Positions 6,311 through 55,905 of a stretch of 64,000 bases of DNA are shown one piece after another (within the stretch, counting starts at the first letter, position 1; each line of letters starts with the position of its first letter). The notes under the pieces were generated by a model. That model ran no database searches. It had not been told where the DNA came from and saw only the letters and a list, made by a program, of their open reading frames with translations. A program made the translations under genes and the position numbers. Source of the stretch: an uncultured Spirochaetota bacterium (GTDB taxonomy: Bacteria; Spirochaetota; Brevinematia; Brevinematales; JAOACQ01); assembly GCA_963768055.1 (NCBI GenBank), contig CAVYGN010000001.1, forward strand, positions 288,001 to 352,000, in the 5' to 3' direction.

Positions 6311-6348
6311 ACTGTCAGTAAAAGAATGAAAAGGGGAGGAAATATTAT

Positions 6349-7609: not shown

Positions 7610-7799
7610 ATTCTATTACTCCGGATTTACGGAACTAAACAGACACGCTAAATTTTAAAAACATTTAACATATATAATACTGATCCTTATTTCCCGGTAA
7701 GTCAAGATGAAAATTATTATATTTTTGTCATGATGTTCATTAAAGCTGACAAATCATTTGTTTATTATGAAACAAGTTTTTTAAAAATTTATGACTTAA

Positions 7800-7908: not shown

Positions 7909-9912
7909 TTAAGGTAAAATTCTTGAGTTATTAATACTGCCCTTAATACACTCTTTCGGCTCGCTGAAATAAAACCCCTGGGAATAATCAATACCCAGTT
8001 CCAGGCATTTTTCATACACTTCTTTGGAATGGACGAATTCCGCTATGGTCAAAATACCGAGTTCTTTCGCGGCGTTGACTATCATTTTCGCAATAATGTA
8101 ACTTTCTCGATCTTTATCGATGTTCTTTATTATGGAAGCGTCGATCTTGATATAATCGACTTTCAGTTTGATGATATATTCAAAATTCGAATAACCGGCG
8201 CCGAAATCATCTATGGCGAACTTGCACCCCAAAGCTTTAACTTCACTGATAAAATCGGTCATAACTTTAAAATTGAAAATGCCCTCCGATTCAGTTATCT
8301 CAAAGACCGTGCGGCGGGCAATGCCGGCATTTCGGTAGAGCATATGTTTAATGAGACGGTTCGTATCCTGGTTTAGGATATCTTTTACCGTAAGATTGAT
8401 CGAAAACTCGTCGGCGGTATCTTTAAAAATTCTGAAAGCCTTTTTGATTACGATGCTCGTTATCTGGCTATAAAGCCTGATTTTCTGAGCTATAACGAGA
8501 AAATTATACGGACCGATCACTTCCCCATCGGTATCAATCATTCTGACAAGGCATTCATAATTACTGACTTTTCCGTTTTTATTATTGACAATCGGCTGGT
8601 AGTAGACTGTAATACGGTCATCTTTTAATGCTTTCTTCAATTTGTCTGCCCACAGGATATTTTTCTCATATTCCTTATTGATCTCCATTGATTCCTCATA
8701 AACAAGGAAGGATTTTTTAATTTTTTTAGCCTCTTTGAGCACCATATCGGCGTTATTGATAATTTTGCTCTTCAGGGAATTAGCTGAAGAGTATTTATCC
8801 AGGCAGCTATAATCGGCAACACCGATCGTAACGCGGATATTGATTTCATGATTTTCAAATATAAAAACATTGTCATTAATCAGTTCAAACAGGTATTGAA
8901 CAATATAGTCAACCGATTTTCTGCTGGAATAGGTCGAGTCCAGCGGCAAATCCATTAATATGGCAAATTCATCCCCATGCATTTTATAGATATGATAATC
9001 ATAGCCGAAAGACAGCTTATTCAATCGGGCGGACATTTCCAGCAGGATATAATCCCCCGCTTCGTTCCCAAAAAAATCATTGATCTCTTTAAAAGAATCT
9101 ATATTGATCAGGAGTATCAGGGGATTTTTCATATTCTCAATATCCAAGATAAGTTTTTCACGGTTAGGCTGTCCGGTCAGTGAGTCGGTATAAAGCCTTC
9201 GGGAAAGCGACTCTTTTAAATCAACAAATTTATTGATCAGTGAGCCGTTCATGGATAAAATGAGTATCAGAAAAGCATATTCCATAGTATAAATGAAAAC
9301 ATATATTTTATTTGAAACCATGACATCGTTCATAATAAAGAAGAAAAAAACAACCAATGCGCCGATTATCGGCCTTGTATATTTGTTATAATCCGATTTA
9401 TTTGTTTTTATCAGGGCATAGAGAAATAGAAAATAACATAAAATCTGAAATGCATATTCGATAATATAAATTATGCCGGGAGTCGCTTCATAGTATGTGA
9501 ATTTGCGGTTAAATATTGAAAAATGCTTTATGGCCGTGTTGTTTATTGAAAATGTCAGGTCGTTCTGGACAAAAATGCCTAATAAGAATAAAACCAGGTT
9601 TATTATTATAAAACAAATAAGAAATGGTTTATATTTTTTTCCCAATAAATAATAAATAAACAAACCCAGGGCGATGCTGATGAAATTCGTAATGGAAAGC
9701 TGAAGCCTTTGCCAGATAATTCCCTGCTCAAGGGAATTTGAATTATAGAGACCGGAACAGAATATATCGTATATACAGACAGTTACTGACAAAAAAGCGA
9801 ACGCAAAATATTCCATTTCTTTCCGTTGCTTCAGGTAGAGGAAAAAATGGTATATTGCGGTATAGAAGCAGACCGCAGCCATTAAGAGAGGCGGTATAGA
9901 TAATATAGACAT
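7909..9912 (-). CDS. 7TM-GGDEF-EAL protein (probable c-di-GMP phosphodiesterase)
   Basis: About 7 N-terminal TM helices, DSLTGQPNR, degenerate HGDEF, ECLVR, EITESE, IDDFGAGYSNF, IKIDAS, QGFYF. Confidence 0.9.
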   Translation of the reverse strand: MSILSIPPLLMAAVCFYTAIYHFFLYLKQRKEMEYFAFAFLSVTVCIYDIFCSGLYNSNSLEQGIIWQRLQLSITNFISIALGLFIYYLLGKKYKPFLICFIIINLVLFLLGIFVQNDLTFSINNTAIKHFSIFNRKFTYYEATPGIIYIIEYAFQILCYFLFLYALIKTNKSDYNKYTRPIIGALVVFFFFIMNDVMVSNKIYVFIYTMEYAFLILILSMNGSLINKFVDLKESLSRRLYTDSLTGQPNREKLILDIENMKNPLILLINIDSFKEINDFFGNEAGDYILLEMSARLNKLSFGYDYHIYKMHGDEFAILMDLPLDSTYSSRKSVDYIVQYLFELINDNVFIFENHEINIRVTIGVADYSCLDKYSSANSLKSKIINNADMVLKEAKKIKKSFLVYEESMEINKEYEKNILWADKLKKALKDDRITVYYQPIVNNKNGKVSNYECLVRMIDTDGEVIGPYNFLVIAQKIRLYSQITSIVIKKAFRIFKDTADEFSINLTVKDILNQDTNRLIKHMLYRNAGIARRTVFEITESEGIFNFKVMTDFISEVKALGCKFAIDDFGAGYSNFEYIIKLKVDYIKIDASIIKNIDKDRESYIIAKMIVNAAKELGILTIAEFVHSKEVYEKCLELGIDYSQGFYFSEPKECIKGSINNSRILP

Positions 9913-10213
9913 ATACTCTATTATAAATAATATTTATAAAATATCAATACTTCAGTCAATTAATTGTTGTTGAAAAATAATTATTCATTGGCCTTTTTTG
10001 TGGTACCGTCTATCTTTTCAATTTTATCCGGTGCAGTATTATCCCCGAGGACTCCGGGATGGATGTTCAGAACTTATTTCACCCTTCATTACATGCACGT
10101 TTTTTTGAATAAAATCCATATCCATGCCATAATATGGACTGATAGGATTTATTAATCTTTCCTTTCCGAATTATTCCAATCAATATATTTTCTTATCAGC
10201 CGGGAGATTATGA

Positions 10214-12034
10214 ATGTTAAAGAATAAATTCCGAAATATAGCCATTATTGCACATGTGGACCATGGTAAAACCACGCTGGTCGACGCAATGCTCCGGCAG
10301 AGCGGTGTTTTCAACGGCCATCAGGAACTTCAAGAACGTGTAATGGATTCCATGGACCTGGAAAAAGAACGGGGCATCACTATCGCTGCAAAGAATACAG
10401 CCGTTTATTACAATGGGATCAAGATTAATATTATAGATACTCCCGGGCATGCCGATTTCGGCGGTGAAGTTGAAAGAAGCTTGAATATGGTTGAAGGGGT
10501 GCTTTTGCTGGTTGACGCCAGCGAAGGCCCTCTTCCCCAGACCAGGTTTGTACTCAGGAAAGCCCTGGCGAAAAAGCTTCTTGTAATTCTGGTAATAAAT
10601 AAGATCGACAGGAAAGATGCCCGGATAGAAGAGGTTGTAAGCGAAGTTTATGACCTTTTTATCGACCTGGGCGCAGATCACGATCAAATAGAGTTTCCGA
10701 TCCTTTATACTGTAGCGACTGATGGAGTTGCGTATAAAAATATTGGCGACGATTCAAAAGATCTAAAACCACTGTTTGAAACTATTATCGGATACATACC
10801 GGCACCGGAAAGCGGCATCCGGGAACCCCAATTCCTTATAACCAATCTGGATTATGATTTTTATGTCGGGCAGGTCGCCCTGGGAAGGATGTTCAACGGA
10901 AAACTGGAACTGGCAAAAACTTACGCCCTCTCCAGCGGCGATAAATTAACAAAGAACATAAGGTTCTCCAACCTTTTTACCTACCACGGATTGACAAAAA
11001 AACAGGTGAATGAAGTTGAAGCCGGTGATATTGTCGCCGTATCCGGCGTGGAAAATGTCAGCATCGGCGATACAATTACATCGGAAGATAATCCGATGCC
11101 GCTTCCCGGAATCCGTGTCGATGAGCCGACGGTATCCATGATCTTCTATGTCAATTCGAGCCCTATCGCCGGAAGGGAAGGCAAGTACCTTACTACCCGG
11201 AATATTAAAGCGAGACTTGAAATTGAGTCATTACGGAATGTTTCCATCCGTGTTGAAATAACCGACCGTGCCGATGCTTTCAAGGTATCCGGCAGGGGAG
11301 AACTGCAATTGGGGATCCTTATCGAAACAATGCGCCGGGAGGGATATGAACTGATGGTCTCCAAACCTACTATAATTACAAAAACAATTAATGGACAGAT
11401 ACAGGAACCGTTTGAAAGGGTCTTTTTCGATATCCCGGAAGAGTACATAGGGGTGGTGTCGGAAAAAATGGCCCAGAAGAAAGGAAAAATGGAAAACATG
11501 AAGCACAGCGGCTCCGGCAGAGTGATCATAGAATGCGTCTGCCCGACCCGCGGGCTCATCGGCCTTCGGAGCCAGTTTTTAACCGATACCCGCGGCCTGG
11601 GCATAATAAACTCGATATTTGAAGGTTACAGGGATTGGGCCGGAACGATCCGGCACAGGATTAACGGTGTACTGGTCGCCGACAGGGCCGGCAAATCAAA
11701 TTCTTATGCACACCTGGCCATGGAAGACCGCGGAGAGCTTTTCCTGAATGTCGGAACAGAAGTTTACGAGGGCATGATCGTCGGAGAGAATAACCGGGAT
11801 CATGATCTGGATGTCAATATTACAAAAGAAAAAAAACTCACCAATATGCGAAGTTCAACGTCGGATCAGACAGTCGTTCTGAAAACCCCCAGGCTGCTGT
11901 CTCTTGACGAGGCGATCGAGTTCATCGCCGAGGATGAACTGGTCGAAGTTACGCCGGGCAGTTTCCGGATGCGTAAAATGGAAATGGATCAGAACAAAAG
12001 GGCCATTCTCAATAAAACGCATAATCTGAAATAG
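10214..12034 (+). CDS. typA: Translational GTPase TypA/BipA
   Basis: NIAIIAHVDHGKTTLVD, DTPGHADFGGEVER, GRGELQL, KKLTNMRS, DELVEVTP. Confidence 0.97.
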   Translation: MLKNKFRNIAIIAHVDHGKTTLVDAMLRQSGVFNGHQELQERVMDSMDLEKERGITIAAKNTAVYYNGIKINIIDTPGHADFGGEVERSLNMVEGVLLLVDASEGPLPQTRFVLRKALAKKLLVILVINKIDRKDARIEEVVSEVYDLFIDLGADHDQIEFPILYTVATDGVAYKNIGDDSKDLKPLFETIIGYIPAPESGIREPQFLITNLDYDFYVGQVALGRMFNGKLELAKTYALSSGDKLTKNIRFSNLFTYHGLTKKQVNEVEAGDIVAVSGVENVSIGDTITSEDNPMPLPGIRVDEPTVSMIFYVNSSPIAGREGKYLTTRNIKARLEIESLRNVSIRVEITDRADAFKVSGRGELQLGILIETMRREGYELMVSKPTIITKTINGQIQEPFERVFFDIPEEYIGVVSEKMAQKKGKMENMKHSGSGRVIIECVCPTRGLIGLRSQFLTDTRGLGIINSIFEGYRDWAGTIRHRINGVLVADRAGKSNSYAHLAMEDRGELFLNVGTEVYEGMIVGENNRDHDLDVNITKEKKLTNMRSSTSDQTVVLKTPRLLSLDEAIEFIAEDELVEVTPGSFRMRKMEMDQNKRAILNKTHNLK

Positions 12035-31437: not shown

Positions 31438-32271
31438 ATGCAAAAAAAAATTTTAGCCCTTTTCATGCTTTTGATCGCGGCAGGCTGTGCGCAGGGGCCT
31501 AAAAACACGGTAATGACTCATGAATTCGGGCCGTATTTCCTTCCTGCGAATGAATGCCTCAATGCAATTTCGATCAATTATTTCACCGAACGGGAGCTGC
31601 CGACTTCAGTTTTCTTCTCCATGGTGGGCGATATAGACTGGCTTCGCTGCGATTCCAGGCTTGCCTCGTACCACCGAATGGTCTTCAGCGGCCTTGAGGA
31701 GAGCGCCGTTTACCAGTTCAGGGTCAACAGCCTGTCGGCCTCATTCTCGGAAAGGTCATATATAAAAACGCCTCCATACGGTAGTAATTACAAGTTCGAT
31801 TTTGCCGTTGTAAGCATAAATTCGCCCCTCGAGCTTGACAAAAGCCCGTATTTCCTTATCCTTTTATCCAAAAAGCCCTCGGTAGGGGAAGATGAATTCT
31901 CACAATATTATTCAAAAAATAAAAAAATATTATCTTCCACTATCCTGGTCCCGTTATTCGATATAAATATCGGGGGTGAAACGTATTCCCTTTCCAGGGG
32001 CGGATTTTTTATCCTTAAATATAAAACCGCAAACATCATCCTCCTTTACAAGGATTTTTCGGACCTGGGGCGCCTTGCGCGGACGGCGCTCGATTGCAGT
32101 TCCGACAATAACTATATTGTTGCCTCTATTTCGGACCAGGCTGCACTTTTAAGATTGAAAGCGGAATACCATTCAAGGGTTAAGGCCATTTTCGCCTTCA
32201 ATGGGGATTCCGAATTTAATTCCGAATGGATAACAGTGGAGCAAAAGAACAAATTTGCCTTAAATAATTAA
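31438..32271 (+). CDS. Lipoprotein with a purple-acid-phosphatase-like FN3 N-terminal domain
   Basis: Lipobox AAGC; HRMVFSGLEESAVYQFRV...KTPP...FDFAVVS; no metal-binding motifs. Confidence 0.55.
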   Translation: MQKKILALFMLLIAAGCAQGPKNTVMTHEFGPYFLPANECLNAISINYFTERELPTSVFFSMVGDIDWLRCDSRLASYHRMVFSGLEESAVYQFRVNSLSASFSERSYIKTPPYGSNYKFDFAVVSINSPLELDKSPYFLILLSKKPSVGEDEFSQYYSKNKKILSSTILVPLFDINIGGETYSLSRGGFFILKYKTANIILLYKDFSDLGRLARTALDCSSDNNYIVASISDQAALLRLKAEYHSRVKAIFAFNGDSEFNSEWITVEQKNKFALNN

Positions 32272-33490: not shown

Positions 33491-34999
33491 ATGAAATTAC
33501 CCTTTTTAATTGCAATATTTATATTTATCGCGGGAAGCCTTTTCGGTGAATGGATCGAGTTGTCTAACAGGTATGTAAGGATCCTGGCCGATTACGATAC
33601 GGCGAGGCTTACAATGTACGCCGCGACAGCCGGTACCAACGCGAAGACAGCGGCCTATAAGCCCCTGCTTTATTATTCAAATCCCTTGGCTTCCTTTGCG
33701 ACCATATCCATTAATAACCAGTACGGCATATTCGGGAGCGGCACGGGCTTTTTCAAGAAAAAGCCCTATATCCTGAAGGATAAAATAGTCTCAGAATGGG
33801 TGATGAAGGGAGTAACCGTGGTCCAATCGGCGGGCATCGTTGAGGGGCCCGTTTCAGGCGTTCCCGATACTATGAGCCTGACTTACTCATTATTAAACAA
33901 CACCCCTATGGATGTGACTGTTCAGATGAGGGTGGTCCTGGATCCTGTCCTTGGGACTTCTGTTCCAAAGAGGTTCAGCACGCCCGGGTACGGCAACATT
34001 ACTAAAGAGACATTGCTTTTTGACGATTCTATCCCGTCATTCTGGTATTCTTTCGATGATTACGACAATCCGGTTATTAAGGTCCAGGGAACATTCGATA
34101 ACGCGACAAAACCGGAAAAGATAATTTTTTCTTCGTGGGAAAAATTTTATGAAAACAAGTGGGATTTCCAGATCGATTCGTCGATGGATTTCAGGAGGCA
34201 AGGAACCGTGCAGTATGACAGTGCGGTGGGGATTTTCTACAAACCGGTTACTCTTTCAGGAAATATTTCAAACCAGATTACCCTCCTGTACGGCCTCTAC
34301 TTGCCTGGAATTATCAATGAAAAGGGAATGACATTGTCGGTTTCTGTCCCAAAGGAAGTTAACAGCCTGCCTGTGACGGTCGGCGCCGAACTAAAAAATT
34401 CGGGAAATTTTCCGCTTGCAAGGCTTACCCTGGAACTTGTAGCCCCAAGTAATTTCACACTGGCCCAGGGTGAAACAAACGTTATAAAATTTCTCAAAGT
34501 GGATACGAACGAATCGAGAAAGGTTTCCTGGAACCTGTCGGGCACAAGCAGTTTTAACGCCAATGCCCTCCTGGTCCGTGCTACGGCTTTGACTAACAGC
34601 AAAGCTACAAACGCGCTTATCATACAATCTGAAAAATTCTTCACTTACTACCAGCCGTCACAGACTTTAATCACGAATGCGGTCAATACCAACACTGCGG
34701 TACAGATTCCTCAGACTAACCTCACCAATCCCCTGACAAATGCAGCCACGACTTACGTTACCCCGAACCCGGCAATTTCAGCGGAGGAAAAAACCATCCT
34801 GAATGAGATCAAGGGCCTGGATAACCTTATCGATAAAATAAGCATTAAATATGAGATTTTGAAAGGAATATACAGGAATACCTACATAACCAACAGCAGC
34901 TTTTTAAGCGACCTGGACGACGATATAAAATATTTTGAAGAAAGGCTTAAAGGAGAAGAAGAAAGCCTTACTAATGATATGACGTACCCGAGAGAATGA
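33491..34999 (+). CDS. Secreted hypothetical protein (beta-rich domain, Ig-like domain, Thr/Asn linker, coiled coil)
   Basis: Signal peptide; long ORF abutting both neighbours. Confidence 0.7.
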   Translation: MKLPFLIAIFIFIAGSLFGEWIELSNRYVRILADYDTARLTMYAATAGTNAKTAAYKPLLYYSNPLASFATISINNQYGIFGSGTGFFKKKPYILKDKIVSEWVMKGVTVVQSAGIVEGPVSGVPDTMSLTYSLLNNTPMDVTVQMRVVLDPVLGTSVPKRFSTPGYGNITKETLLFDDSIPSFWYSFDDYDNPVIKVQGTFDNATKPEKIIFSSWEKFYENKWDFQIDSSMDFRRQGTVQYDSAVGIFYKPVTLSGNISNQITLLYGLYLPGIINEKGMTLSVSVPKEVNSLPVTVGAELKNSGNFPLARLTLELVAPSNFTLAQGETNVIKFLKVDTNESRKVSWNLSGTSSFNANALLVRATALTNSKATNALIIQSEKFFTYYQPSQTLITNAVNTNTAVQIPQTNLTNPLTNAATTYVTPNPAISAEEKTILNEIKGLDNLIDKISIKYEILKGIYRNTYITNSSFLSDLDDDIKYFEERLKGEEESLTNDMTYPRE

Positions 35000-40669: not shown

Positions 40670-41641
40670 ATGAAAAGAAAGATCTTCGTTCCCGGAATAT
40701 TGATTTATATTGTATTTATTATCACTCTTGCCTGCAATATTACACCGGCTGAAGATTTAAAAATAGCCTGGACGCAAAGAGCCATACCTTCGGCTAACTG
40801 GAATTCTGCGGCCTATGGAAACGGAGTTTTTGTCGCAGTGGCTTTTAAATCCGACAGGGCTGCGACATCGCCCGACGGGATAACCTGGTCGTCCCAAACC
40901 ATACCTGAGGGCCGTTGGTCATCTATAACCTGGGGTAACGGTATATTTGTCGCAGTAGCAGGCGTCGGAAAAATCAGAAAAGAATTTGACGAATCCTTCG
41001 GAACAATAGCCGCGACTTCACCTGACGGGATTAACTGGACTGCGCGAACCATGCCCAAGGGAGAATGGTCGTCGGTAACATGGGGAAATGGAATTTTTGT
41101 CGCAGTTAGCTTTAGCGCACAAGCCGCGACTTCACCTGACGGAATAAACTGGACTTCGCGAAATATGCCTAAGAATCAATGGTGGTCGTCGGTAACATGG
41201 GGAAACGGAGTTTTTGTCGCAGTTAGCTACGGCAGCGAAATAGCGGCGACTTCATCAGACGGGATAACCTGGACGGTCCGGACCCTTCCGATTTCCGATG
41301 GATGGCAGTCGGTCGCATACGGGAAAGGAGTTTTTGCGGCTATTGCCGACGGCTTATCGGTGGTATGCTCGCCGGACGGGATTACCTGGTCGAAAAACGA
41401 CCTTTCAGGCATTTCATCCATATGGGGGCGTAATAAAAACTGGCAATCAGTAACCTGCGGAAGCGGCTTGTTTGTCGCGGTTGACGATGCGTCCAATTTC
41501 GGTGCGGTATCGATTGACGGCATAACCTGGACGCAAACGGACTTTCCGGATGACGGCTGGTGGCATTCAATCGCTTACGGCAAAGGAACATTTGTCGTGG
41601 TCGGCGAGGGCAAAACATCATTGGTTTCTCAATCGAAATAG
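40670..41641 (+). CDS. Lipoprotein with about 7 WxSVxxGNGxFVAV...SPDGITW repeats (predicted beta-propeller)
   Basis: Lipobox TLAC; the repeats are visible in the protein. Confidence 0.8.
   Translation: MKRKIFVPGILIYIVFIITLACNITPAEDLKIAWTQRAIPSANWNSAAYGNGVFVAVAFKSDRAATSPDGITWSSQTIPEGRWSSITWGNGIFVAVAGVGKIRKEFDESFGTIAATSPDGINWTARTMPKGEWSSVTWGNGIFVAVSFSAQAATSPDGINWTSRNMPKNQWWSSVTWGNGVFVAVSYGSEIAATSSDGITWTVRTLPISDGWQSVAYGKGVFAAIADGLSVVCSPDGITWSKNDLSGISSIWGRNKNWQSVTCGSGLFVAVDDASNFGAVSIDGITWTQTDFPDDGWWHSIAYGKGTFVVVGEGKTSLVSQSK
41008..41228 (+). repeat. Highly similar intragenic tandem repeat (period about 114 bp)
   Basis: agccgcgacttcacctgacgg...tttttgtcgcagttagct at 41008-41111 and 41122-41228. 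Confidence 0.85.
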
Positions 41642-42483: not shown

Positions 42484-42754
42484 AACCACCTCTTTTTCCG
42501 GGATTGAAACCCGTTAATTAAATTTACAAACTAAAACATGAAAAGGCAATTAAATTTTTGTCTTTTCAACCCTTGACAAAAAAAGCTCAAAAAAACGCAA
42601 AACTAATAGCTTCGATAATCCGTAACATAACCCCGGTTACGGAAAAAAAACCTTGAAAATAAACCCCATAGAATTATAATAGATATCTGTTAGAAAATCA
42701 ACAAAAATTTATTACAGGAAATATTACAGATTAAAGGCTTATCGCAAAAGCCGG

Positions 42755-43732
42755 TTAAACCGTCCTTCTCTGTTTTAGCTGGTCCAGGAGGACTGCGATT
42801 AGCAAGATTATCCCTCTTACGACATATTGATAAAATGTTTGAATATTTAAAAGATTCATTGCATTTTGAATCGTACCCATTATCAATACGCCGACTATCA
42901 CGCCGAGTATAGTCCCTATGCCTCCGGAAAGGGATACTCCTCCCAGCACGCAGGCTGAAATAACATCCAGCTCAAAACCCTGGGAAGCATTCGGCTGACC
43001 GCTTGTCATCCTTGAGGCCAGAACTACGCCCGCTATGCCGGCGACAATTCCCTGTACCATAAAAATAATTATCCTTATCTTATCGACATTAATACCGGCC
43101 AGTCTTGCGGCTTCTTTGTTGCCCCCGACTGCCAGCGTATTACGGCCGTAAACGGTCCTGTTGAGAAGAACAATAAAAGTTACAAAACAGGTTATCATGA
43201 TCCATACCGGTATCGGAATACTCAGGAAGTCGGTGTTTCCTATGACATAAAAACCGGTATTGGTAATTCCTACAGCGATGCCTCCGGATAAAATGAAGCA
43301 CAAACCTCTAACTATCTGCATCATCGCCAGCGTAGTAATCAGCGCGTTGATCTTAAGTTTCGCCACGATAACGCCGTTCCCCAGCCCGACGACTCCGCCC
43401 GATAATACGCCGCATAAAGTCCCGAATAAAACATTATTCGTAGCCCTGATCATGACCGCGGCCATAACGCCGGTAAAAGCGACGACCGCGCCTACCGAAA
43501 GATCTAAATCGCCCGAAGCAAGGCTGAATAACATAGTACAGGCGACAAGCCCTATCGTCGATACGGCAAGAAGAATTCCTACGATATTTTCAAAACTGAA
43601 AAAATAAGGCACGGTTATAGAAAGGATAGCGCATAATATCAGGTAAATTATTAAAATACTCGCATTATCCCAGATGCTGAATTGAAGGGATTTTTTTTTA
43701 ACTGCCGCGGATTTATTTACAATTGTATTCAT
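42755..43732 (-). CDS. araH: L-arabinose ABC transporter permease
   Basis: GDLDLSVG, ALITTLA, YGRNTLAVGGN, SRMTSGQP, ISACVLGGVSL. Confidence 0.88.
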   Translation of the reverse strand: MNTIVNKSAAVKKKSLQFSIWDNASILIIYLILCAILSITVPYFFSFENIVGILLAVSTIGLVACTMLFSLASGDLDLSVGAVVAFTGVMAAVMIRATNNVLFGTLCGVLSGGVVGLGNGVIVAKLKINALITTLAMMQIVRGLCFILSGGIAVGITNTGFYVIGNTDFLSIPIPVWIMITCFVTFIVLLNRTVYGRNTLAVGGNKEAARLAGINVDKIRIIIFMVQGIVAGIAGVVLASRMTSGQPNASQGFELDVISACVLGGVSLSGGIGTILGVIVGVLIMGTIQNAMNLLNIQTFYQYVVRGIILLIAVLLDQLKQRRTV

Positions 43733-43750
43733 GAGATCATCTCCCTTTCT

Positions 43751-45241
43751 TTAAACAACGGGCAGGGCCAGCCTGAGCAATTTTTCTTCGGTAGCCTCGG
43801 AATGATCCAGCGAGGCATGAAGTTTTCCATCCCGCATTACGATTATCCTGTTGGAAATTCCTAATATCTCGGGAAGCTCGCTCGATACGACTACAATACC
43901 CATACCCTGTAAAGCCAGCTGCGATATGATCGAATAAATTTCCGATTTCGCTCCGATATCGATGCCCCTCGTAGGTTCGTCAAACAGGATCACTTCGACC
44001 CTTTCGGAAAGCCAGCGGGCTAAAATCACCTTCTGCTGGTTCCCGCCGGAAAGGTCCCTGACCAGCCGTTCGAGCGAAGGAGTTTTGATATTCAGCTTTT
44101 CGACAAAAAGCCTCGCATTCTCATTATCTTTCTTTTCATTGATAAACCCGAACCTTGTCATCAATCTCCTAACGCTTATATTGATATTTTCTTTAACGGA
44201 CCTGATCGGTATGACGCCCTCTTTTTTCCTGTCCTCGGGGCAGTAAACAATGCCGTTCTTTATAGCCTCCTCGGGGCTGTTGATTTTGACCTCTTTTCCT
44301 TTTAATTTTATTTTTCCAGCCTTTAATTTCATCGCTCCGTAAATCAGCTTTAAGAGTTCCGTCCTTCCGGCACCCACAAGTCCGAATATCCCCAATACCT
44401 CTCCCCTGGAAACCGAGAAACTGGCCGGCTCCGCCAGCCCCTTTCCCATTAAGCCTTCGGCTTCAAGCACTGGTTCCCCCCCGGGGCGCGGCGAATAATT
44501 ATAAATATCCTCAATGGAACGGCCTACCATTTTATTGATCAGCGTATCCTCATTGATCTTTGAAACATCGTTATAGGTTTCTATCCTGACCCCGTCGCGG
44601 AAAACGGTTACCTTTTCGCAAATCCCGAATATCTCTTTCAACCGGTGTGAAACATAAAGTATGACCCTGCCCTGCCTCTTCAATTCTTTGATAAGTTCGA
44701 AAAGCTTGTGGACCTCCCGGTCGGACAGGCTGCTCGTCGGTTCGTCGAATGCTATGACCTTGACATTCCGGATTAGGGCTTTTGCAATCTCCAGCATCTG
44801 TCTCTGGGCGATCGAAAGCGCGCCTACCTTTGCGGACGGATTGATTTTTTCCTCCATTGCCGCCAACTGCTTTAAAGCGTCTTCGCGCATCTCCTTTTTA
44901 TCGATAAAACCGAATTTTCCGGGCATATGTCCGAGCAGAAGATTTTCAGCGACCGTCAAATCGGGGACCAGGTTCAATTCCTGATAAATAACCGTTATTC
45001 CCGCATTGATCGCTTCCGCTGTGGACTGGAAAACCTGGGGCAGGCCGTTAAGCCTGATAACGCCTTTATCGGGCTGATAGAGCCCGCTTAATATTTTTAA
45101 CAGCGTCGATTTACCGGCTCCATTTTCCCCTACCAGGGCATGAGCGGTCCCTTCCTCAACGCCGAACGTTATATCGTTAAGGGCTAAAACCCCCGGAAAC
45201 CTTTTGGTTATTCCTTCGAATTGAAGATAGCTTTCCTGCAT
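43751..45241 (-). CDS. araG: L-arabinose ABC transporter ATPase (tandem NBD)
   Basis: GENGAGKSTL, IAFDEPTSSLS, CPEDRKKEG, LSGGNQQK, DEPTRGID. Confidence 0.9.
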   Translation of the reverse strand: MQESYLQFEGITKRFPGVLALNDITFGVEEGTAHALVGENGAGKSTLLKILSGLYQPDKGVIRLNGLPQVFQSTAEAINAGITVIYQELNLVPDLTVAENLLLGHMPGKFGFIDKKEMREDALKQLAAMEEKINPSAKVGALSIAQRQMLEIAKALIRNVKVIAFDEPTSSLSDREVHKLFELIKELKRQGRVILYVSHRLKEIFGICEKVTVFRDGVRIETYNDVSKINEDTLINKMVGRSIEDIYNYSPRPGGEPVLEAEGLMGKGLAEPASFSVSRGEVLGIFGLVGAGRTELLKLIYGAMKLKAGKIKLKGKEVKINSPEEAIKNGIVYCPEDRKKEGVIPIRSVKENINISVRRLMTRFGFINEKKDNENARLFVEKLNIKTPSLERLVRDLSGGNQQKVILARWLSERVEVILFDEPTRGIDIGAKSEIYSIISQLALQGMGIVVVSSELPEILGISNRIIVMRDGKLHASLDHSEATEEKLLRLALPVV

Positions 45242-45269
45242 GATCTCCAGCCTCTAAAATCTTATTTAG

Positions 45270-45296
45270 ATCCGGCCGGGACATCCCCGGCCGGAT
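45270..45296 (-). other. Intercistronic stem-loop between araF and araG
   Basis: Perfect 11-bp inverted repeat atccggccggg/cccggccggat with a 5-nt loop and no U-tract. Confidence 0.75.
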
Positions 45297-45307
45297 TCCA
45301 TAGCCCG

Positions 45308-46306
45308 CTATTTCGGAAGAGAGTCCGCCAGCCCTAAATCAGTCATAATCTTTACATATGTTTCCCTTGTTACGATAAAACCCGAGGTCAATGTCTTCAT
45401 AGGAGGCTGCTTCCCGTCCTTTACCCATTCGTAAAGCAATTTTGTAGTTTCATAACCATGTCTGTAAGGGCTTATTGCGCTAGTCGCATAGAAACCGTTA
45501 ACTCCCTCTTTTTTAAACTCGAGCAGGCCCGCTCCTGCGCCAAGGCCTATGCCTATCGTTGTCTTTCCATCGAAGCCCTTCCCCTCCAGCGCACGCACCG
45601 CGCCAATAACCGATTCCTCATTGCCGCCGGTGACGATCCATTTTTTTATCTTAGGGTTCTGGGTTAGCGCGACATTCGCCCCTTCCATTCCGCCGGGAAC
45701 ATCGAGAGTTTTGTTTACGGCGATGAAAATCTTATTTGCGGGGAAACCGGATTTTATCAGAGCATCTTTTTCAGCGTCGGTCCTCTGCTTGATGGTTTCC
45801 AGTTCGTCATGGGTAACTATCAAAGCGCCGGTATCGTTGACGTCCCAGCCGCGTTTCAGCATTTCATTATAGCAGGCCTTGCCGATATCGCTGCCGATCT
45901 GTGCCGAAGATATGCCCATATAAACGACTTCCTCCATTGGCTTGCCGTCCGCTCCGACGAACCTGTCATCCACGGTGATGACCTTCATGTTTTTGGAATT
46001 CGCCTTTTTCATGATAGCGGGCCCGAGCCTTACGTCAGGGGTGCAGATAACGAAACCCTGAACTTTCTGCGCCGCAAGGTTGTCGATAGCGGCCATGACC
46101 TTTTCCCCGTCAGTCGCGCCGATCTTGATCAAAGTCACGCCATTTTCATCGGCAAACTTCTGCGCGAACTTCCATTCGTTCTGGAACCAGAGTTCTTCCG
46201 GCTGTTTCACCAGGAACCCGAGCTTGATCTTTTCATCCGGGTACCCGAGGCCGGCGATAACAAACAAAACAACAAGCGCCAAACACAACTTCTTACCTAA
46301 ATTCAT
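45308..46306 (-). CDS. araF: L-arabinose ABC transporter substrate-binding protein
   Basis: Signal peptide, KLGFLVKQPEELWFQNEW, GFVICTPDVRLGPAI, VITVDDRF. Confidence 0.92.
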   Translation of the reverse strand: MNLGKKLCLALVVLFVIAGLGYPDEKIKLGFLVKQPEELWFQNEWKFAQKFADENGVTLIKIGATDGEKVMAAIDNLAAQKVQGFVICTPDVRLGPAIMKKANSKNMKVITVDDRFVGADGKPMEEVVYMGISSAQIGSDIGKACYNEMLKRGWDVNDTGALIVTHDELETIKQRTDAEKDALIKSGFPANKIFIAVNKTLDVPGGMEGANVALTQNPKIKKWIVTGGNEESVIGAVRALEGKGFDGKTTIGIGLGAGAGLLEFKKEGVNGFYATSAISPYRHGYETTKLLYEWVKDGKQPPMKTLTSGFIVTRETYVKIMTDLGLADSLPK

Positions 46307-46482
46307 AGGCTTCCTCCTTTTTTTATTTCGAAGTATAGTGTCCGATTTTAAGCCCGTTAATAACTTCAGATCGTTTCAGGAAACATTATAATAAAATTTA
46401 AGGGAGGAATCCCATATATGATATGTGTAAAATGATGGATGTTTTGAGAAAAAAAAGGAAAAGCGGGCGCTTTTCCGGCTGT

Positions 46483-47553
46483 TTACCCGGTCTGAAAGGA
46501 GTCAAGCCGCCTTCCTCTATAATTCGCAGGCGAAACCTTTACCTTATCTTTGAAAATCCTGGAAAAGTAATACGGGTCCTCGAAACCCAGTTTTTCAGCT
46601 ATTTCTTTTATTTCAAGGTTCGTATAGAGGAGCATCTCCTTGGCCTTTTCTATTTTTGTCTTGATAAAATACTGGTTGGGGGATAACCCCACCTGGATCT
46701 TAAACCGTCTCCTGAAATTTTCATAGCCCATATAAACGCTGCCGGCGACATTCTGGAAATCCAGCTCCCTGGAATTGACCTTTTCCTCTATAATTGCCTT
46801 CGCCCTGTAGATCGGATCGTAAACCTGGACAAATTGCGATTTTTCAGAAGATAGCAGCAGCTCGTTCAATCTCTCATTGCTTAGTTCCCTGCTGTTCTCA
46901 AGTTCCACGATCTTTGAATTCTTTAAATAAAACAGCTTATCTATCAGATTTTTCACATCGTCGGCCGTGCTGGGTATGACTATTATCCCCTTGCCTTTGT
47001 TTTTAAGCTCCCTTAAAATTGAAATAAAGGTATCGTACTGGCGAAGGCTCAAATATCTTGTTACATGATCGAAAATATAGTATTCGCAGTCCATGACCAG
47101 GACCCTCGATAATTCCACAATCATCTTTTCATTCGGGTTCAGGTCTTTTACTTTTATATTCAAATTAATAGGGACCTGGAGTTCCCGGAGGATTTGTTCA
47201 GCCCTTTCACGCATCGTTTTTTTGCTTATAAATCCGAATCTGGAATATTTATTTAAAGCGCCTAAAAAGATATTATCGAGAACTGTCAATTTATCGACTA
47301 ATTTATAATTCCCCCTGGCGATTCCTATCATCCTTATCCTTTCTTCCGCCGGAATATTTTTCGACTTAAAATAAATCTTTCCGATATCCTCTTTTTCTAT
47401 TCCGCAGAGAATATTTATCAAAAGGTTTAATTTATCGATGTTGTCCGATATGATGCCGCAGATCTGACCCTTGCCGACCTCGAAATTCACCTGATCCAGC
47501 ATCAGGGTATTTTCCTTGGTCATCAGCAAGCCTTCGACTTTCAATATTTTCAT
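46483..47553 (-). CDS. Fusion of a degenerate sugar-ABC ATPase domain and an AraC-type HTH
   Basis: N-terminal about 240 aa collinear with AraG NBD1 but with degenerate Walker A/B; C-terminal FRRRFK...GLSPNQY...IKEIAEKLGFEDPYYFSRIFK...SPANYR; start placed at ATG 47553. Confidence 0.85.
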   Translation of the reverse strand: MKILKVEGLLMTKENTLMLDQVNFEVGKGQICGIISDNIDKLNLLINILCGIEKEDIGKIYFKSKNIPAEERIRMIGIARGNYKLVDKLTVLDNIFLGALNKYSRFGFISKKTMRERAEQILRELQVPINLNIKVKDLNPNEKMIVELSRVLVMDCEYYIFDHVTRYLSLRQYDTFISILRELKNKGKGIIVIPSTADDVKNLIDKLFYLKNSKIVELENSRELSNERLNELLLSSEKSQFVQVYDPIYRAKAIIEEKVNSRELDFQNVAGSVYMGYENFRRRFKIQVGLSPNQYFIKTKIEKAKEMLLYTNLEIKEIAEKLGFEDPYYFSRIFKDKVKVSPANYRGRRLDSFQTG

Positions 47554-47890
47554 ATATTTTCCTGTTTTACGATCATGCGCCCGGCATGCAGAAAATAAAT
47601 ATAAACTTCGCCTATTATGATAAATCAAGAATTTATTTTGTCAAATGGAGGGATTGTGATTATTTCATTTATCCCTAATTCTTCAGCTAATATTATCAAT
47701 GATACAGCAACTCCGCCTCCGGCGATCCATTTCAAGGATAACGCCCGCGGCAGCAATCGCGATTTCTTTAGCAGCATTATCAGTAAATCGGTATTATTTT
47801 GCAATTTTTATGACTTAACAATATTCTATCCCTGGTTGGAATTGTAAAATTCTGTCAATCATCCTGCAAAAGGGGAGGGCGGATTGGATT

Positions 47891-49195
47891 ATGAGGAGCC
47901 GAAAACTGTTGCAACTGTTATTGGGACTGATACTGATAAGTGCTTGTCTTACCGGGTGTGGGAGAAGTGTCGTCGAAACTTCCTGGAAGGATTATCTCAA
48001 CACAAATTTCAGCGCAGTTCATTTGTCCGTTAATGGCGATGCGAATGAGCATCTGATCTTTGGGGCGATACCCATTTCTCAGCCGGCACAGAACCTCTCA
48101 CCGGAGTTAGCCGCCTTTCTTGGAAGATGGGAGGGCTATGATTACAGTCCGCCCGTTAAAAAGGATAACAAGGGCATACTGGTCATCCGGGAAATTACAC
48201 CGCAGGGAGGCACAGCCTTCCTCTGGGCAGGCGCCAATCTTCAGTTCCCGTTCTGGGTTAAAGAGATTAAATTCAAAGTTGTGCCCGGTACAACGCCCTT
48301 GATTCAATGGCAAGGCGATCTGGCCGGTGGGCCGAATGGCCTGCGTGGGATGGGAACCTTCATGTTTACTTATGACCGCGATAAGCACGTCCTCAAAGGC
48401 GGCATTAATCTTCCAAGCGGAGCCGCGCTCAACGGGCCGTTCGAACTCAGCCGGAATAAGTCCTTCTATGTTTACCGGGACTACGCCAAATATCTGGCAA
48501 GCAAACGAATATATCCCAAGGAATTTCTCACGAGTAATCTGAAGCGCTATGGCAGCGGTTATCTGCTTTATTTGCCTGAAGGCTACGAAGCCAATTCCAC
48601 ACAGATCTGGCCGCTGATTATTTTTCTGCATGGCTGGGGCGATCGAGGCGATAACCTTTTCCTGCTGGCAAAAGCCAGCCCCTTCATGATGATCCGCGAG
48701 AAAGGCCCGCTGCCTTGCATCATCGCAGCGCCGATCTTGAATGTATCCGGCTCATATCGATCGTTTCCCCAAGAATATATGGATGGAGTGCTTAAAGAGA
48801 TCCTGATGAATTACCGGATCGATAAGAAACGGATTTACCTTACCGGCTTGAGCATTGGTGGCGAGGCAACCTATCGATTTGCACTACACCAGCCCGATAC
48901 ATTCGCGGCGATTGCGCCTCTGGCAGGCTTCGACGCCAGGTATTATCCAGCCGCGGGCTTCGTGCCATCGACCGAGCCTCTGGAACGACTCAAAAATTTG
49001 CCGGTATGGGCCATTCACGGTTCTGACGATATGGTTGTACCTTTAAAGGCCGATCGAAACACAGTTGATGCACTTAAGAAGGCCGGCGTGAATGTACGCT
49101 TTAGCATTCTTGAGAATCACGACCACGATGTTTGGACGGATACTTACTCGGATCCCAAGTTCTACGCCTGGTTGCTTCAGCATCGACGACCATAA
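47891..49195 (+). CDS. Lipoprotein with a C-terminal alpha/beta-hydrolase (esterase/peptidase) domain
   Basis: Lipobox LTGC; FLHGWG, GLSIGG nucleophile elbow, HGSDD, HDVW. Confidence 0.85.
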   Translation: MRSRKLLQLLLGLILISACLTGCGRSVVETSWKDYLNTNFSAVHLSVNGDANEHLIFGAIPISQPAQNLSPELAAFLGRWEGYDYSPPVKKDNKGILVIREITPQGGTAFLWAGANLQFPFWVKEIKFKVVPGTTPLIQWQGDLAGGPNGLRGMGTFMFTYDRDKHVLKGGINLPSGAALNGPFELSRNKSFYVYRDYAKYLASKRIYPKEFLTSNLKRYGSGYLLYLPEGYEANSTQIWPLIIFLHGWGDRGDNLFLLAKASPFMMIREKGPLPCIIAAPILNVSGSYRSFPQEYMDGVLKEILMNYRIDKKRIYLTGLSIGGEATYRFALHQPDTFAAIAPLAGFDARYYPAAGFVPSTEPLERLKNLPVWAIHGSDDMVVPLKADRNTVDALKKAGVNVRFSILENHDHDVWTDTYSDPKFYAWLLQHRRP

Positions 49196-52618: not shown

Positions 52619-53365
52619 TCAAAAATCTTTTTTATTGGATTTGAATATTGACAAATAATTTATCAGCATTTCTTTTTCCAATCCGGCTACCAGATTATAA
52701 ATATCTTTATAATCCCCTTTTGAATCCGCTTCTCTTATTGCATGATAGTAATCCAGGCGTTTTTCATTTTTTATTATAATAGGGACATAATCGTTTTTCA
52801 TTAGTTCGAAGTTTAATAACAGCCTCGCTGTCCTTCCGTTTCCGTCTACGAACGGATGGATCTGTACAAAATCGGTATGAAGTCTGGCTGCTTTTTCAAT
52901 AGGGTGAAGATCTGAATTTTTATGCCATTCCATCATTTTTTCGATTTGCCCTTTAACCAAATAATGGTTCGGCGGCTTAAATTCCGATCCCTTAATATAA
53001 ACATCAACATTTCGATATTTACCCGCATTATCTCTGTCAATTCCTTTGAGAACAAGCTGATGAATATTTTTAATTGTCCACTCCGAGAAACCTTCTTTAT
53101 TTTCTATTATATCATAAACATAATTAATCGCCTCGAGATGATTGACCGCCTCAAGATGCTCTCTTAAAGATTTTCCTCCTACAGTAATACCTTCAAGGAC
53201 GACTTGAGTTTCTCTTAACGTTAACGAGTTTCCTTCAATAGCGTTTGAATTATAAGTCCATTTGAGCGAAATATTTTCTCTAAGACTTTTCAGACTTTCC
53301 ATTGAAAAAGGTCTGTATGAATCAAGTTCTTTTTTAAGATTATCAATTTCCTCATATTTTGCCAT
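52619..53365 (-). CDS. Fic family protein (class II, with N-terminal inhibitory motif)
   Basis: HPFVDGNGRTAR catalytic motif and SNAIEGN inhibitory motif. Confidence 0.93.
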   Translation of the reverse strand: MAKYEEIDNLKKELDSYRPFSMESLKSLRENISLKWTYNSNAIEGNSLTLRETQVVLEGITVGGKSLREHLEAVNHLEAINYVYDIIENKEGFSEWTIKNIHQLVLKGIDRDNAGKYRNVDVYIKGSEFKPPNHYLVKGQIEKMMEWHKNSDLHPIEKAARLHTDFVQIHPFVDGNGRTARLLLNFELMKNDYVPIIIKNEKRLDYYHAIREADSKGDYKDIYNLVAGLEKEMLINYLSIFKSNKKDF

Positions 53366-53685: not shown

Positions 53686-55863
53686 CTACTGCACCGCTGC
53701 CGCATTTTCGCCGTTCCCGAGCGGCAGGGGATAGATCAGGTACGGCGCATCGGCCGGGCCGTAGTACGAGTTCATCAGATCCTGGGCCGACACTTTTATA
53801 TAGTAAGTCCCCGCAGCCAGGTTAGTGTTTATCTCGATAAACGCCATGTTGTTATACTCATTGGTCGTCGACGATACGGATATCGAGCCTTCGCCTGAAT
53901 ACTGGACTGTAGACAGCGCCGAGCTGTCCCCGCTGCTTGCCGACCGGAATGCCCCTCCTGCCTGATCGAAATTCTGCAGGACGTTCTGAGAACCGTCAAG
54001 CAGCTGCACATTTGACACAGGAGGGTTTCCGGCGACAGGGGTACAGAAAGTAAGCCTGAGACGTATATAACCTGATGAAGTCACTGTAATTTTATAATAA
54101 TCCGCCTGGCCTTCGCCCGCGATGAAGGCGACATTGGTCCGGACTATGATCGACGATGAAAGGGAGATCGACGTCGCAGGGGTCTGGTCCTCGGAACTTT
54201 GGTCTATTATACAAGCTTTGTATCCTCCAGTTACAATTGCAGTATCGCCTGATTCTATGCTTAAAGCACTCCATAAGTAATATGCTGAAAAATTTCCTTG
54301 GACCAATTGTGGAGTAAAATGATAAACCGAATTCTGTGTCTGCCCCCAGGCGGCGTTAGTGAACATGTCCGCGACCTGAGGATAGTCCTTGAACAACTGA
54401 ATATTAGAAGCGTTATGCCAGGTCTTTACGAAAGAGTTGTAGTACTGCTTAGGGAATAACGGGACCCATACCCCCATGTTCGTGGCGGTTTCCTGCCAGA
54501 TAGTAGTCTTCGCGTCGCTTAAATACTGGCTGAATAAACCCGCCAGTGTCGGGTCGAATTTCTGGAGATCGTTCAGGATATCGTAAAGCCTTACATAATG
54601 GGCCGCCGGATCGTTCGAGGGCTGGATGTACTTTCGCATGTTCGTGATATAAAACGCTATATCCGACGGTATCGATGTGAATGTATTATAAAATCCCTTT
54701 ATAGTGTTCGGCATGGAGGACGGAATATTCTGCTGATAGTTACCCATATCGCATTGTATAAGGTTTACGTTGACCTGGGTTGCGCTTGCCGCGTCCTGCG
54801 CTCCGTTTAAATAATTGGAATAGTTCCATCCCTGATTGGCTTCAGGTCCGGGAGAACCTATAAGAAAAGGCGTTACATTATAATAAGCGTAAATATCCTC
54901 CAGGTTTCCGCTGTAGCATGTATCGAACCCGAGTTTTCCCACCTGCCCGAATATAGTCGATATCGCCTTGTTTATCTGTGAATCGAAGAGGGTCATTCCT
55001 GTATTATCGTTAAAAAGTACTGATCCGAACTTTTTAAGGCTGGAATAAGGGTTGAAATTTCTCGGTTTTCCTATATTTCCTGTATAATAAGCCGACTCCT
55101 GGCCGGGCTGGATACTGCACGAGGTAAACATTCCGCCTAACGGGATCGACAAAATGCCTAAGGCGATCTCCTCATAGTCTATGTCAATCTTCGATTTCTT
55201 TTTAAAAGATATTCCGCCGTTAAGCGGCCAGATCCCGTCCCCATGTCCCCACATAATAAGAGTTATGCTGCTTCCCGGATAATTATAATTCGTCTTGAGA
55301 TAATTCAATACGTTTGATAATGTAACCGGGTTGCATGCGTCCGGATCGGGGGGCATATACACCCTGTCGAACCGTTCTATGCCTGCTGCAGAAGCCGTAT
55401 TATTGTTATTCGAGTTATTGTAATTTATGGTAAATAGTCCGCCGGGCTTGACCCAGGCCGGAAACACGTTGTAATCAACGGAAGCGTCGATATATATGAA
55501 TATCTTGGTGTTCCAGCCATTATAATAATTATAATCCCATACATTCTGCGAATAATTAAGACTATCGGCTACAAAAGTCTGGTTTATATTCTGAATCGCG
55601 TAAGACTGTAGATTACAGCCCGAACCCATATAAATCAGAATTATGTTATTCACTGGGTTACCGGTTGATTTCTTGAAGCTGTCCAGGCTGTATAAAAATG
55701 TATCCTTCCATATGGCTGGATGCTGAATACCGGAAGGCGTGGATGACGAAGAGGACGAGCTGCTTCCCCCGCTATTTCCGTTATTTCCCGGGGTTACCCC
55801 GCAAGCCGTATACGTTGAAAGTATTATCCCCATTAAAATAAAAACAATCGATATACTTTTCAT
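53686..55863 (-). CDS. Clostripain-like (peptidase C11) lipoprotein with a C-terminal PPC-like beta domain
   Basis: Lipobox YTAC and Ser-rich linker; LIMWGHGDG (His), LGFDTCYSGNLE (Cys), LIGSPGPE...GWNY; C-terminal DYYKITV...LAAGTYYIKVS. Confidence 0.75.
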   Translation of the reverse strand: MKSISIVFILMGIILSTYTACGVTPGNNGNSGGSSSSSSSSTPSGIQHPAIWKDTFLYSLDSFKKSTGNPVNNIILIYMGSGCNLQSYAIQNINQTFVADSLNYSQNVWDYNYYNGWNTKIFIYIDASVDYNVFPAWVKPGGLFTINYNNSNNNNTASAAGIERFDRVYMPPDPDACNPVTLSNVLNYLKTNYNYPGSSITLIMWGHGDGIWPLNGGISFKKKSKIDIDYEEIALGILSIPLGGMFTSCSIQPGQESAYYTGNIGKPRNFNPYSSLKKFGSVLFNDNTGMTLFDSQINKAISTIFGQVGKLGFDTCYSGNLEDIYAYYNVTPFLIGSPGPEANQGWNYSNYLNGAQDAASATQVNVNLIQCDMGNYQQNIPSSMPNTIKGFYNTFTSIPSDIAFYITNMRKYIQPSNDPAAHYVRLYDILNDLQKFDPTLAGLFSQYLSDAKTTIWQETATNMGVWVPLFPKQYYNSFVKTWHNASNIQLFKDYPQVADMFTNAAWGQTQNSVYHFTPQLVQGNFSAYYLWSALSIESGDTAIVTGGYKACIIDQSSEDQTPATSISLSSSIIVRTNVAFIAGEGQADYYKITVTSSGYIRLRLTFCTPVAGNPPVSNVQLLDGSQNVLQNFDQAGGAFRSASSGDSSALSTVQYSGEGSISVSSTTNEYNNMAFIEINTNLAAGTYYIKVSAQDLMNSYYGPADAPYLIYPLPLGNGENAAAVQ

Positions 55864-55905
55864 CAAATTACCCTCCGAATAATTTGTCGATAAATAAAAT
55901 AATTG

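Follow-up and report, generated by a model that had tools for sequence, protein, structure and literature searches.

An open reading frame (ORF) lying ahead of a set of araFGH-like genes in an uncultured Spirochaetota bacterium (contig CAVYGN010000001.1, positions 288,001 to 352,000; hereinafter the window, meaning this whole stretch of 64,000 nucleotides) raises an unusual question: what purpose might an ATP-binding cassette (ABC) nucleotide-binding domain (NBD) with degenerate catalytic motifs serve at the N-terminus of a transcription regulator? The encoded protein is very probably an AraC/XylS regulator that uses a dead CUT2-type NBD as its input domain and acts as a local activator of sugar-uptake genes. 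The gene and its parts are as follows:

46483..47553, minus strand: regulator gene, coding for a pseudo-NBD joined to an AraC DNA-binding domain (ORF and its translation, Pfam, homologues)

46846..47553, minus strand: catalytically dead ABC NBD resembling the first NBD (NBD1) of CUT2 ATPases, residues 1-236 (BLASTP, NCBIfam, AlphaFold2 model, Foldseek, column comparison)

46816..46845, minus strand: interdomain linker, residues 237-246, ending in a DP motif conserved in the family (predicted local distance difference test [pLDDT] score below 50 at 237-244)

46495..46815, minus strand: AraC/XylS double helix-turn-helix DNA-binding domain, residues 247-353 (HTH_18, HTH_AraC and profile matches)

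Read from the ATG at 47553 to the stop codon at 46483-46485 on the minus strand, the ORF codes for 356 aa; a TTG at 47628 offers an alternative upstream start. We prefer the ATG because homologues begin at the same point with a shared MK(I/L)L and because an AGGAAA lies 5 nt ahead of it, and the same observations bear out the coordinates given in a first-pass annotation of this DNA, which had been made from the sequence alone. The database entry for this protein (P0002) has 346 aa and begins 10 residues inside the ORF (97% coverage); comparison with the homologues supports the longer form over this public call.

Both halves of the fusion are recognized by Pfam above the respective cut-offs: ABC_tran at residues 19-165 (30.3 bits, cut-off 25; E-value 7e-7), HTH_18 at residues 272-347 (63.6 bits, cut-off 33.6) and HTH_AraC (51.8 bits, cut-off 26.6). 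The first-pass annotation had described an intact AraC double helix-turn-helix at the C-terminus and had suggested a search for ABC_tran and HTH_18 in a single protein; the domain is indeed intact and the pairing is found. It had also likened the N-terminal part to NBD1 of the neighboring AraG, and BLASTP recovers this relationship (27% identity over 231 columns, E-value 3e-20) along with a match to the second NBD (NBD2) of the same protein (26% identity over 241 columns, E-value 4e-15). Among the NCBIfam models, the best partial matches are to the first halves of YtfR, AraG, RbsA and XylG, the top score being 99.6 bits against a cut-off of 850, so that the level of a CUT2 ATPase equivalog is not reached. 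CUT2 ATPases consist of two fused NBDs in a chain of about 500 aa, whereas the regulator has one. An AlphaFold2 model built on 37 family sequences (mean pLDDT 88.6, and about 90 over residues 1-236) places an NBD fold at residues 1-236 and, beyond a linker of low confidence (237-244), an entirely helical domain with seven helices at 247-353. When this model was compared with the PDB using Foldseek, the best 50 matches were all ABC NBDs (E-values down to 1e-15; template modeling score normalized to the target 0.72-0.88 for single-NBD chains), and profile matches connected the DNA-binding part to solved AraC-type domains (6swi, 2e-21; 2k9s, 3e-18; XylR 4fe4, 1e-13). At the junction of the two parts, D246 is nearly invariant and P247 invariant in the regulator family. 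Judged by its DNA-binding domain, the protein is an AraC/XylS regulator; it has the NBD fold but it is not an ABC ATPase, as all the catalytic motifs are lost.

How widespread is this architecture, and is it real? A word-indexed search over 5.8 billion proteins with the window regulator as query recovered 39 clusters (P0002-P0040, the first being the window's own protein) at 261-744 bits and 41-100% identity. All of these carry HTH_18; 37 are 338-377 aa long and two are shorter. They are followed by a gap, the next matches being CUT2 tandem ATPases at no more than 112 bits. Five further, more divergent members of identical layout (P0122-P0125 and P0131; 29-37% identity) came from an exhaustive phmmer search of 1.84 billion representatives, and a profile search with 42 family sequences set 33 family proteins (at least 373 bits) apart from the ATPases (at most 211 bits) and retrieved no members beyond those of the earlier searches. 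The ESM Atlas returned only generic ABC ATPase clusters and none with the NBD-AraC architecture; it covers only clusters of at least 50 members, and this result is hence uninformative. Members with a named organism come from a Spirochaetales, Brevinematales or 'Deltaproteobacteria' metagenome-assembled genome (MAG). Since a precomputed ABC_tran assignment is present in only 22 of the 39 clusters, look-ups by domain architecture would miss many members; the domain databases under-count the architecture, and the automatic names are either 'ABC-type sugar transport system ATPase subunit' (JGI) or 'helix-turn-helix domain-containing protein' (NCBI). Certain other fusions are distinct from the family: P0128 (708 aa), matched via its helix-turn-helix part only, reads as a tandem of cupin-type AraC regulators, two in number, with no relation to the pseudo-NBD family; P0164 (810 aa) is a tandem-NBD sugar ATPase fused to a periplasmic-binding-protein-like domain; and P0157 (913 aa) is a tandem-NBD sugar ATPase fused to a permease, which might serve as a modeling proxy for the CUT2 NBD-permease interface.

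This breadth bears on the suspicion that the fusion is an artefact, namely a misassembly, or a decaying ATPase gene whose remnant has merged with an AraC gene. The weak ABC_tran score (30.3 bits) is the sole hint of decay; the same unbroken architecture recurs in 39 clusters from several sources and independent metagenomes, 37 of them within the narrow length range given above, and in three independent MAG contigs, its fold is confidently predicted, and it has family-specific invariant residues. We accordingly take the suspicion to be refuted for practical purposes: the fusion is not unique to this assembly but shared by the 39 clusters and the five distant members, an uncommon yet conserved design. 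To place its origin, we compared 23 of the 42 family NBDs with 31 NBD1 and 31 NBD2 halves, taken from 28 random picks among 140 CUT2 representatives and from the three ATPases of the window and of two related loci described below (L001 and L002). In the resulting tree, the family NBDs form one side of a branch (Shimodaira-Hasegawa-like approximate likelihood ratio test [SH-aLRT] 96), separate from both NBD1 and NBD2, and therefore point to a single old origin of the fusion. The scores favor NBD1 as the ancestor of the pseudo-NBD, a point that the tree does not resolve. A recent duplication of the neighboring araG, which we also considered, is ruled out by the 27% identity between the two proteins and by the grouping of the window AraG NBD1 with MglA-like NBD1s rather than with the regulator family.

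What, then, has the domain lost and what has it kept? Every motif substitution listed in the first-pass annotation is visible in the alignment of the regulator with AraG: Walker A reads SDNIDKLNL where AraG has GENGAGKST, the Q-loop has Gly in place of Gln, the signature reads LNPNEKM instead of LSIAQRQ, Walker B FDHVT instead of FDEPT, and the H-loop IPS instead of VSH. The helical-subdomain stretch LTVLDNIFLG...FGFISKKTMRE, said there to be kept, is likewise seen in the same alignment. These losses extend across the family, as is apparent from an alignment of 42 family NBDs with 141 CUT2 first NBDs, where 42 columns reach a conservation of at least 80% in CUT2 NBD1; the family has altered 29 of these and retained 13. 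The Walker A Lys is replaced by Leu in 90% of the 42 members and all three Gly residues are lost, an acidic residue being conserved where the phosphate would sit. Across the same members the Q-loop Gln has become Gly or Glu, and both the Leu and the Gln of the signature are gone. The Walker B Asp is retained in only 55% of the family, the catalytic Glu has given way to His, Ser or others, and the Pro that follows is changed; in the H-loop the His is variable and Pro194 (98%) replaces the preceding Ser. Judging from these residues, no member of the regulator family can bind or hydrolyze ATP.

As the family and the 141 CUT2 NBD1s are equally diverse (mean pairwise identity 0.41 and 0.39, respectively), we expressed regional conservation relative to the average of each set. 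On this scale, Walker A stands at 1.78-fold in the CUT2 ATPases and at 1.13-fold in the family, and the first part of the helical subdomain (89-125, comprising LSVLDNIFLG, the FGF loop and the next helix) at 0.76-fold in the ATPases and 1.06-fold in the family. This latter stretch and the helix at 177-192 are among those in which the family and the ATPases are most alike (1.30-fold and 1.31-fold, respectively). The best-conserved NBD stretch of the family spans Walker B, the D-loop and the following helix (157-176; 1.31-fold) and has residues of its own (FD.VTR.MSLRQYEAF). In all, members down to 25-29% identity agree fully or almost fully at about 25 NBD positions, among them surface motifs that lie away from the dimer interface. 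The structures solved for importers place the coupling helix of the permease in a groove made by the Q-loop and the helical subdomain, and the D-loop at the NBD-NBD interface. Sequence searches of the PDB yielded no CUT2 permease, and no CUT2 tandem ATPase closer than P-glycoprotein-type NBDs. By analogy with the solved importers, the ligand site appears to have decayed with two classical protein-contact surfaces held under constraint. This is a moderate effect, part of which could have structural causes.

The genomic setting provides the next line of evidence. Downstream of the regulator, the window has the following features:

45308..46306, minus strand: AraF-like periplasmic sugar-binding protein (Peripla_BP_1, 128 bits; 45% identical to the araF-like binding protein beside AraH in L002)

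43751..45241, minus strand: araG, intact tandem-NBD ATPase (NCBIfam AraG, 754.7 bits, cut-off 689; two ABC_tran stretches)

42755..43732, minus strand: araH, permease with a conserved cytoplasmic EAA loop (GGNKEAARLAGINV; NCBIfam AraH, 466.9 bits, cut-off 378)

42736..42752, minus strand: terminator-like hairpin just past araH (from a consensus scan only)

The order on the minus strand is thus regulator, araF-like, araG, araH, and the adjacency to araFGH noted in the first-pass annotation stands, with both AraG and AraH reaching their NCBIfam equivalog cut-offs. AraG (496 aa) has canonical Walker A, Walker B and H-loop motifs, and the EAA-loop columns of AraH are invariant or nearly so across 56 AraH sequences. 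The binding protein reaches no NCBIfam equivalog model; we take it to be AraF-like from its position in the operon and its likeness to Escherichia coli AraF. No arabinose catabolic genes are found among the 19 flanking ORFs scanned.

To extend the comparison, genome contigs were scanned with patterns from the helix-turn-helix part of the regulator, and 80 loci were kept from at least 600 matching stretches; among these 80, 77 are ordinary AraC genes that match residues 177 onward only, and the other three, a lower bound for the family in these contigs, are true members from three independent MAG contigs (L001, L002 and L003). A CUT2 binding-protein gene lies beside the regulator in all four loci, including the window, and the neighborhood analysis suggested at the outset accordingly finds CUT2 sugar-transporter genes next to it in four of four loci inspected. 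In L001, from a Brevinematales MAG, a regulator 75% identical to that of the window is followed by mglB-, mglA- and mglC-like genes (MglC, 445 bits, cut-off 386); the binding proteins of the two loci are 21% identical and the permeases 29% identical, the latter sharing the EAA loop. L003, from a Spirochaetales MAG, has a regulator 54% identical to that of the window. A divergent araF-like gene (54% identity, E-value 1e-16), represented by its first 58 codons, lies at the start of the contig, and directly downstream of the regulator comes a gene (1771-7047, plus strand) whose 1758-aa product is a GH2 beta-galactosidase bearing galactose-binding modules of the F5/8 type C kind. The sugars implied by the four loci, namely arabinose, galactose and galactosides, are chemically close.

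L002, from a second Spirochaetales MAG, differs in composition. Here a complete mglBAC-like set (3938-7718) and a glycosidase gene lie divergently upstream of a regulator 43% identical to that of the window, and the regulator gene is itself followed directly by an araF-like gene and araH (9083-11052, plus strand), the stop of araF overlapping the start of araH (10081-11052, plus strand; NCBIfam AraH, 418.5 bits, cut-off 378). There is no araG between or after these genes, the next being a radical-SAM gene, and the regulator is therefore the only NBD-like product of this operon. As a separate observation, L002 AraH departs from the consensus at 20 of the 146 columns that are at least 90% conserved in the 56 AraH sequences (median 2 departures), seven or eight of these falling around the EAA loop (positions 186-223 of window AraH) and including N205G and L211R; no other sequence of the set is as distant, and the EAA-loop departures of L002 AraH are a lead only.

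How would the regulator act on these genes? Four sites in and around the intergenic regions bear on this:

47617..47644, minus strand: promoter-like site for the regulator (TTGACA, 16 nt, TATCAT; 11/12; from a consensus scan only)

46457..46476, minus strand: terminator-like hairpin, an 8-pair stem and then a T-run (TTTTTTTT), starting 7 nt past the regulator stop (from a scan)

46407..46447, minus strand: candidate operator, a 41-bp block with arms TCCAT and ATGG(G)A 19 nt apart (from conservation in L001 and L003)

46385..46390, minus strand: TATAAT, presumed to be the -10 hexamer of the araF promoter, which lacks a good -35 (by inspection of the sequence; also conserved in L001)

The terminator-like hairpin suggests that the regulator is transcribed separately from araFGH. 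The 41-bp block recurs with 40 of 41 positions identical in L001, where it precedes a non-orthologous mglB-like gene, and with 30 of 41 in L003, where it lies between the regulator and the GH2 gene (next best match there 23; background 10.3 ± 2.9). A three-way alignment of the window, L001 and L003 shows no change in the arms TCCAT(C) and ATGG.A, which are separated by 19 nt and form an inverted repeat. No second copy exists within the window (best other match 25/41), and in L002 the divergent spacer has only weak matches (20-22/41), for which we claim no operator. The block ends about 16 nt upstream of the TATAAT and overlaps the -35 position; where a good -35 is missing, a candidate operator in this place would be the usual picture for an activator that overlaps the -35, and it is what is expected of class II AraC-type activators. 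From this arrangement we infer that the regulator binds here. Its regulon appears to reach beyond transporters, since the GH2 gene of L003 sits behind an operator-like site. Rfam gave no match in 42500-48000 at E-values up to 1, and hence no known leader RNA.

The promoter-like site and the terminator-like hairpin that the regulator gene has to itself would suit a signal-blind activator, in which the pseudo-NBD is a constitutive dimerization scaffold and control is exerted through the amount of regulator; some AraC-family members do work without known ligands. The roughly 25 invariant or near-invariant NBD positions, with surface motifs outside the dimer interface among them, amount to more constraint than a scaffold needs, and we consider such an activator improbable.

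If a signal is received, where does it come from? We envisage that the regulator binds the candidate 41-bp site as a dimer and activates araFGH. With the nucleotide pocket gone, the pseudo-NBD can hardly sense through its only known ligand site. Our proposal, offered tentatively and at somewhat less than an even chance, is that permease docking rather than a free ligand would provide the input; the first-pass annotation had likewise envisaged docking, on AraH or AraG. By analogy with ABC importers, the dead NBD would attach to the permease dimer (AraH in the window, MglC elsewhere) at its cytoplasmic EAA loops, either taking the place of the real ATPase or competing with it, such that the loading or conformation of the transporter sets the ability of the regulator to bind DNA. 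Three observations speak for this proposal, namely the relative conservation of the permease-facing helical subdomain, the L002 operon with the regulator, araF and araH and no araG, and the occurrence of 75%-identical regulators beside AraH in the window and MglC in L001, two permeases that are 29% identical and share the EAA loop. The first two of these are also why the indirect evidence leans toward the permease rather than AraG as the docking partner.

Several points weigh against docking. The helical subdomain is only modestly over-conserved, for which structural needs alone could account, and the contact surface is assigned by analogy with other importers. Regulators usually adjoin the genes they control, and adjacency says nothing on physical coupling; moreover, the genomic context covers four (the window and L001-L003) of about 45 family members. 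The co-expressed intact AraG of the window, or the MglA-like ATPase of L001, would compete for the same loops, and the araG-less operon is a single case in which the ATPase of the divergent mglBAC-like set might energize AraH. Finally, the shared sugar chemistry of araFGH, the mglBAC-like genes and the GH2 beta-galactosidase suits a direct arabinose or galactose sensor just as well.

Such a sensor would be a soluble one-component regulator, with the dead NBD acting as a dimerization and small-molecule module that detects a galactose- or arabinose-type sugar or metabolite inside the cell and makes no contact with the transporter. Small-ligand binding and dimerization are the rule among AraC-family input domains (e.g., the AraC cupin and the binding-protein-like domain of XylR), the family has previously taken up transporter-derived folds as ligand sensors (XylR, Btr), and related sugars link the four loci: araFGH in the window, mglBAC-like genes in L001 and L002, and the GH2 beta-galactosidase in L003. 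Dimerization would likewise fit the D-loop and following helix, which belong to the NBD-NBD interface and are the most conserved NBD stretch, and the inverted-repeat arms of the candidate operator fit a symmetric dimer. However, the only known ligand pocket of the fold is destroyed (the P-loop Gly residues lost, Lys replaced by Leu, an acidic residue at the phosphate position), and we know of no sugar-binding NBD. A soluble sensor also leaves unexplained both a helical subdomain better kept than in working ATPases and the araG-less operon of L002; we regard it as quite possible, if somewhat doubtful.

The homology of the pseudo-NBD to both NBDs of AraG, together with the strongly conserved D-loop region, brings up another arrangement, the AraG alternative of the first-pass annotation. 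While transport is at rest, the pseudo-NBD would pair with an NBD of AraG or MglA, the regulator being held or released by the ATPase cycle. Sequestration of MalT by MalK is a precedent. In NBD pairing, however, ATP forms the bridge, contacted by Walker A on one side and by the signature on the other, and these two motifs are dead in the regulator; AraG already has its own pair of NBDs, joined in a single chain; and the regulator operon of L002 has no araG. We give this arrangement little credence.

A more far-reaching form of the permease-docking proposal, which we consider rather unlikely, is that the family supplies the output subunit of a sensor shaped like an ABC importer, passing a signal from the periplasm to the promoter with neither a kinase nor a free cytoplasmic ligand. 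In this assembly, built like a transporter but unable to hydrolyze ATP, a permease dimer would be joined by a binding protein of the AraF or MglB type and by two pseudo-NBD-AraC chains. The loaded binding protein would act through the coupling loops of the permease to close the dead NBDs and thereby place the DNA-binding domains on the inverted-repeat operator. The regulator-araF-araH operon of L002 would then be the pure sensor form, and the window, with its intact araG, a mixed form with the permease serving both ATPase and regulator.

How does the regulator compare with known systems? Like AraC, RhaS and XylR, it has a C-terminal double helix-turn-helix and is located beside sugar-uptake genes; unlike the cupin, receiver or binding-protein-like inputs of AraC-family sugar regulators, its input is an ABC NBD with no working nucleotide site. 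From the CUT2 ATPases (AraG, MglA, RbsA, XylG and YtfR) it has in common the fold of NBD1, the C-terminal helix of NBD1, the LSV.(D/E)NIFLG motif and the FGF(I) loop; these ATPases have a second NBD, whereas in the regulator the DNA-binding domain stands in its place, the catalytic motifs are lost and the clade is separate. Recruitment of an ABC-importer component has parallels in XylR of E. coli and Btr of Bacillus subtilis, in which AraC domains are joined to folds from ABC-transporter binding proteins. The XylR structures match the DNA-binding part of our regulator and the Btr NCBIfam model matches it at an E-value of 2e-13. XylR and Btr, however, borrow the ligand-binding component and bind the substrate directly, whereas the present regulator borrows the motor component and has no substrate site of its own. 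In MalK-MalT, PtsG-Mlc, LysP-CadC, BceAB-BceS and UhpC-UhpB, as would be the case under our permease-docking proposal, the state of a transporter rather than free substrate sets transcription; systems of the MalK-MalT type involve separate proteins with dedicated contact surfaces, whereas the regulator would carry a copy of the motor domain and use its docking site. For the receipt of a protein signal by the N-terminal domain of an AraC regulator, InvF-SicA, MxiE-IpgC and ExsA-ExsD provide precedents, although their partners are secretion chaperones or anti-activators, whereas ours would be a membrane permease. We know of no case of a regulator that carries a transporter's own motor domain and uses the docking site of the motor, and the literature search described next yielded none.

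The first-pass annotation knew of no description of the architecture, and a full-text literature search, which did not cover subscription journals, likewise retrieved no description of an NBD-AraC fusion. Btr is the subject of PMC3333878. The text of a companion-domain census (PMC5882156), which counts 106 domains for AraC/XylS, does not name ABC; in its supplement, eight rows have a weak 'ABC transporter ATPase domain-like' assignment (family E-values 0.06-0.08), and these entries neither show nor exclude earlier sightings. A further paper (PMC6055005) proved irrelevant, the two Pfam names standing in separate rows of the table concerned. Coupling to the permease, if real, would make the regulator categorically new: a transporter would be wired straight to a promoter, and one- and two-component systems would be joined by a new class of signal transduction. 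Such coupling would furthermore provide a natural tool for studying the conformational relay from ABC permeases to ATPases, and would show what a pseudo-ATPase can be kept for after catalysis is lost. Even the plainer reading, in which the pseudo-NBD works without the transporter, adds an unexpected input domain to one of the largest families of regulators.

Other ORFs of the window stand outside this system. Three of them, with 502, 277 and 323 aa, have no Pfam family at E-values up to 1e-5 (33491-34999, 31438-32271 and 40670-41641, respectively, all on the plus strand). A few kilobases from the cluster, on the minus strand, lie genes for a Fic/DOC-domain protein (52619-53365) and for a 726-aa protein with a serine-rich N-terminus and a match to the clostripain (C11) peptidases (53686-55866).

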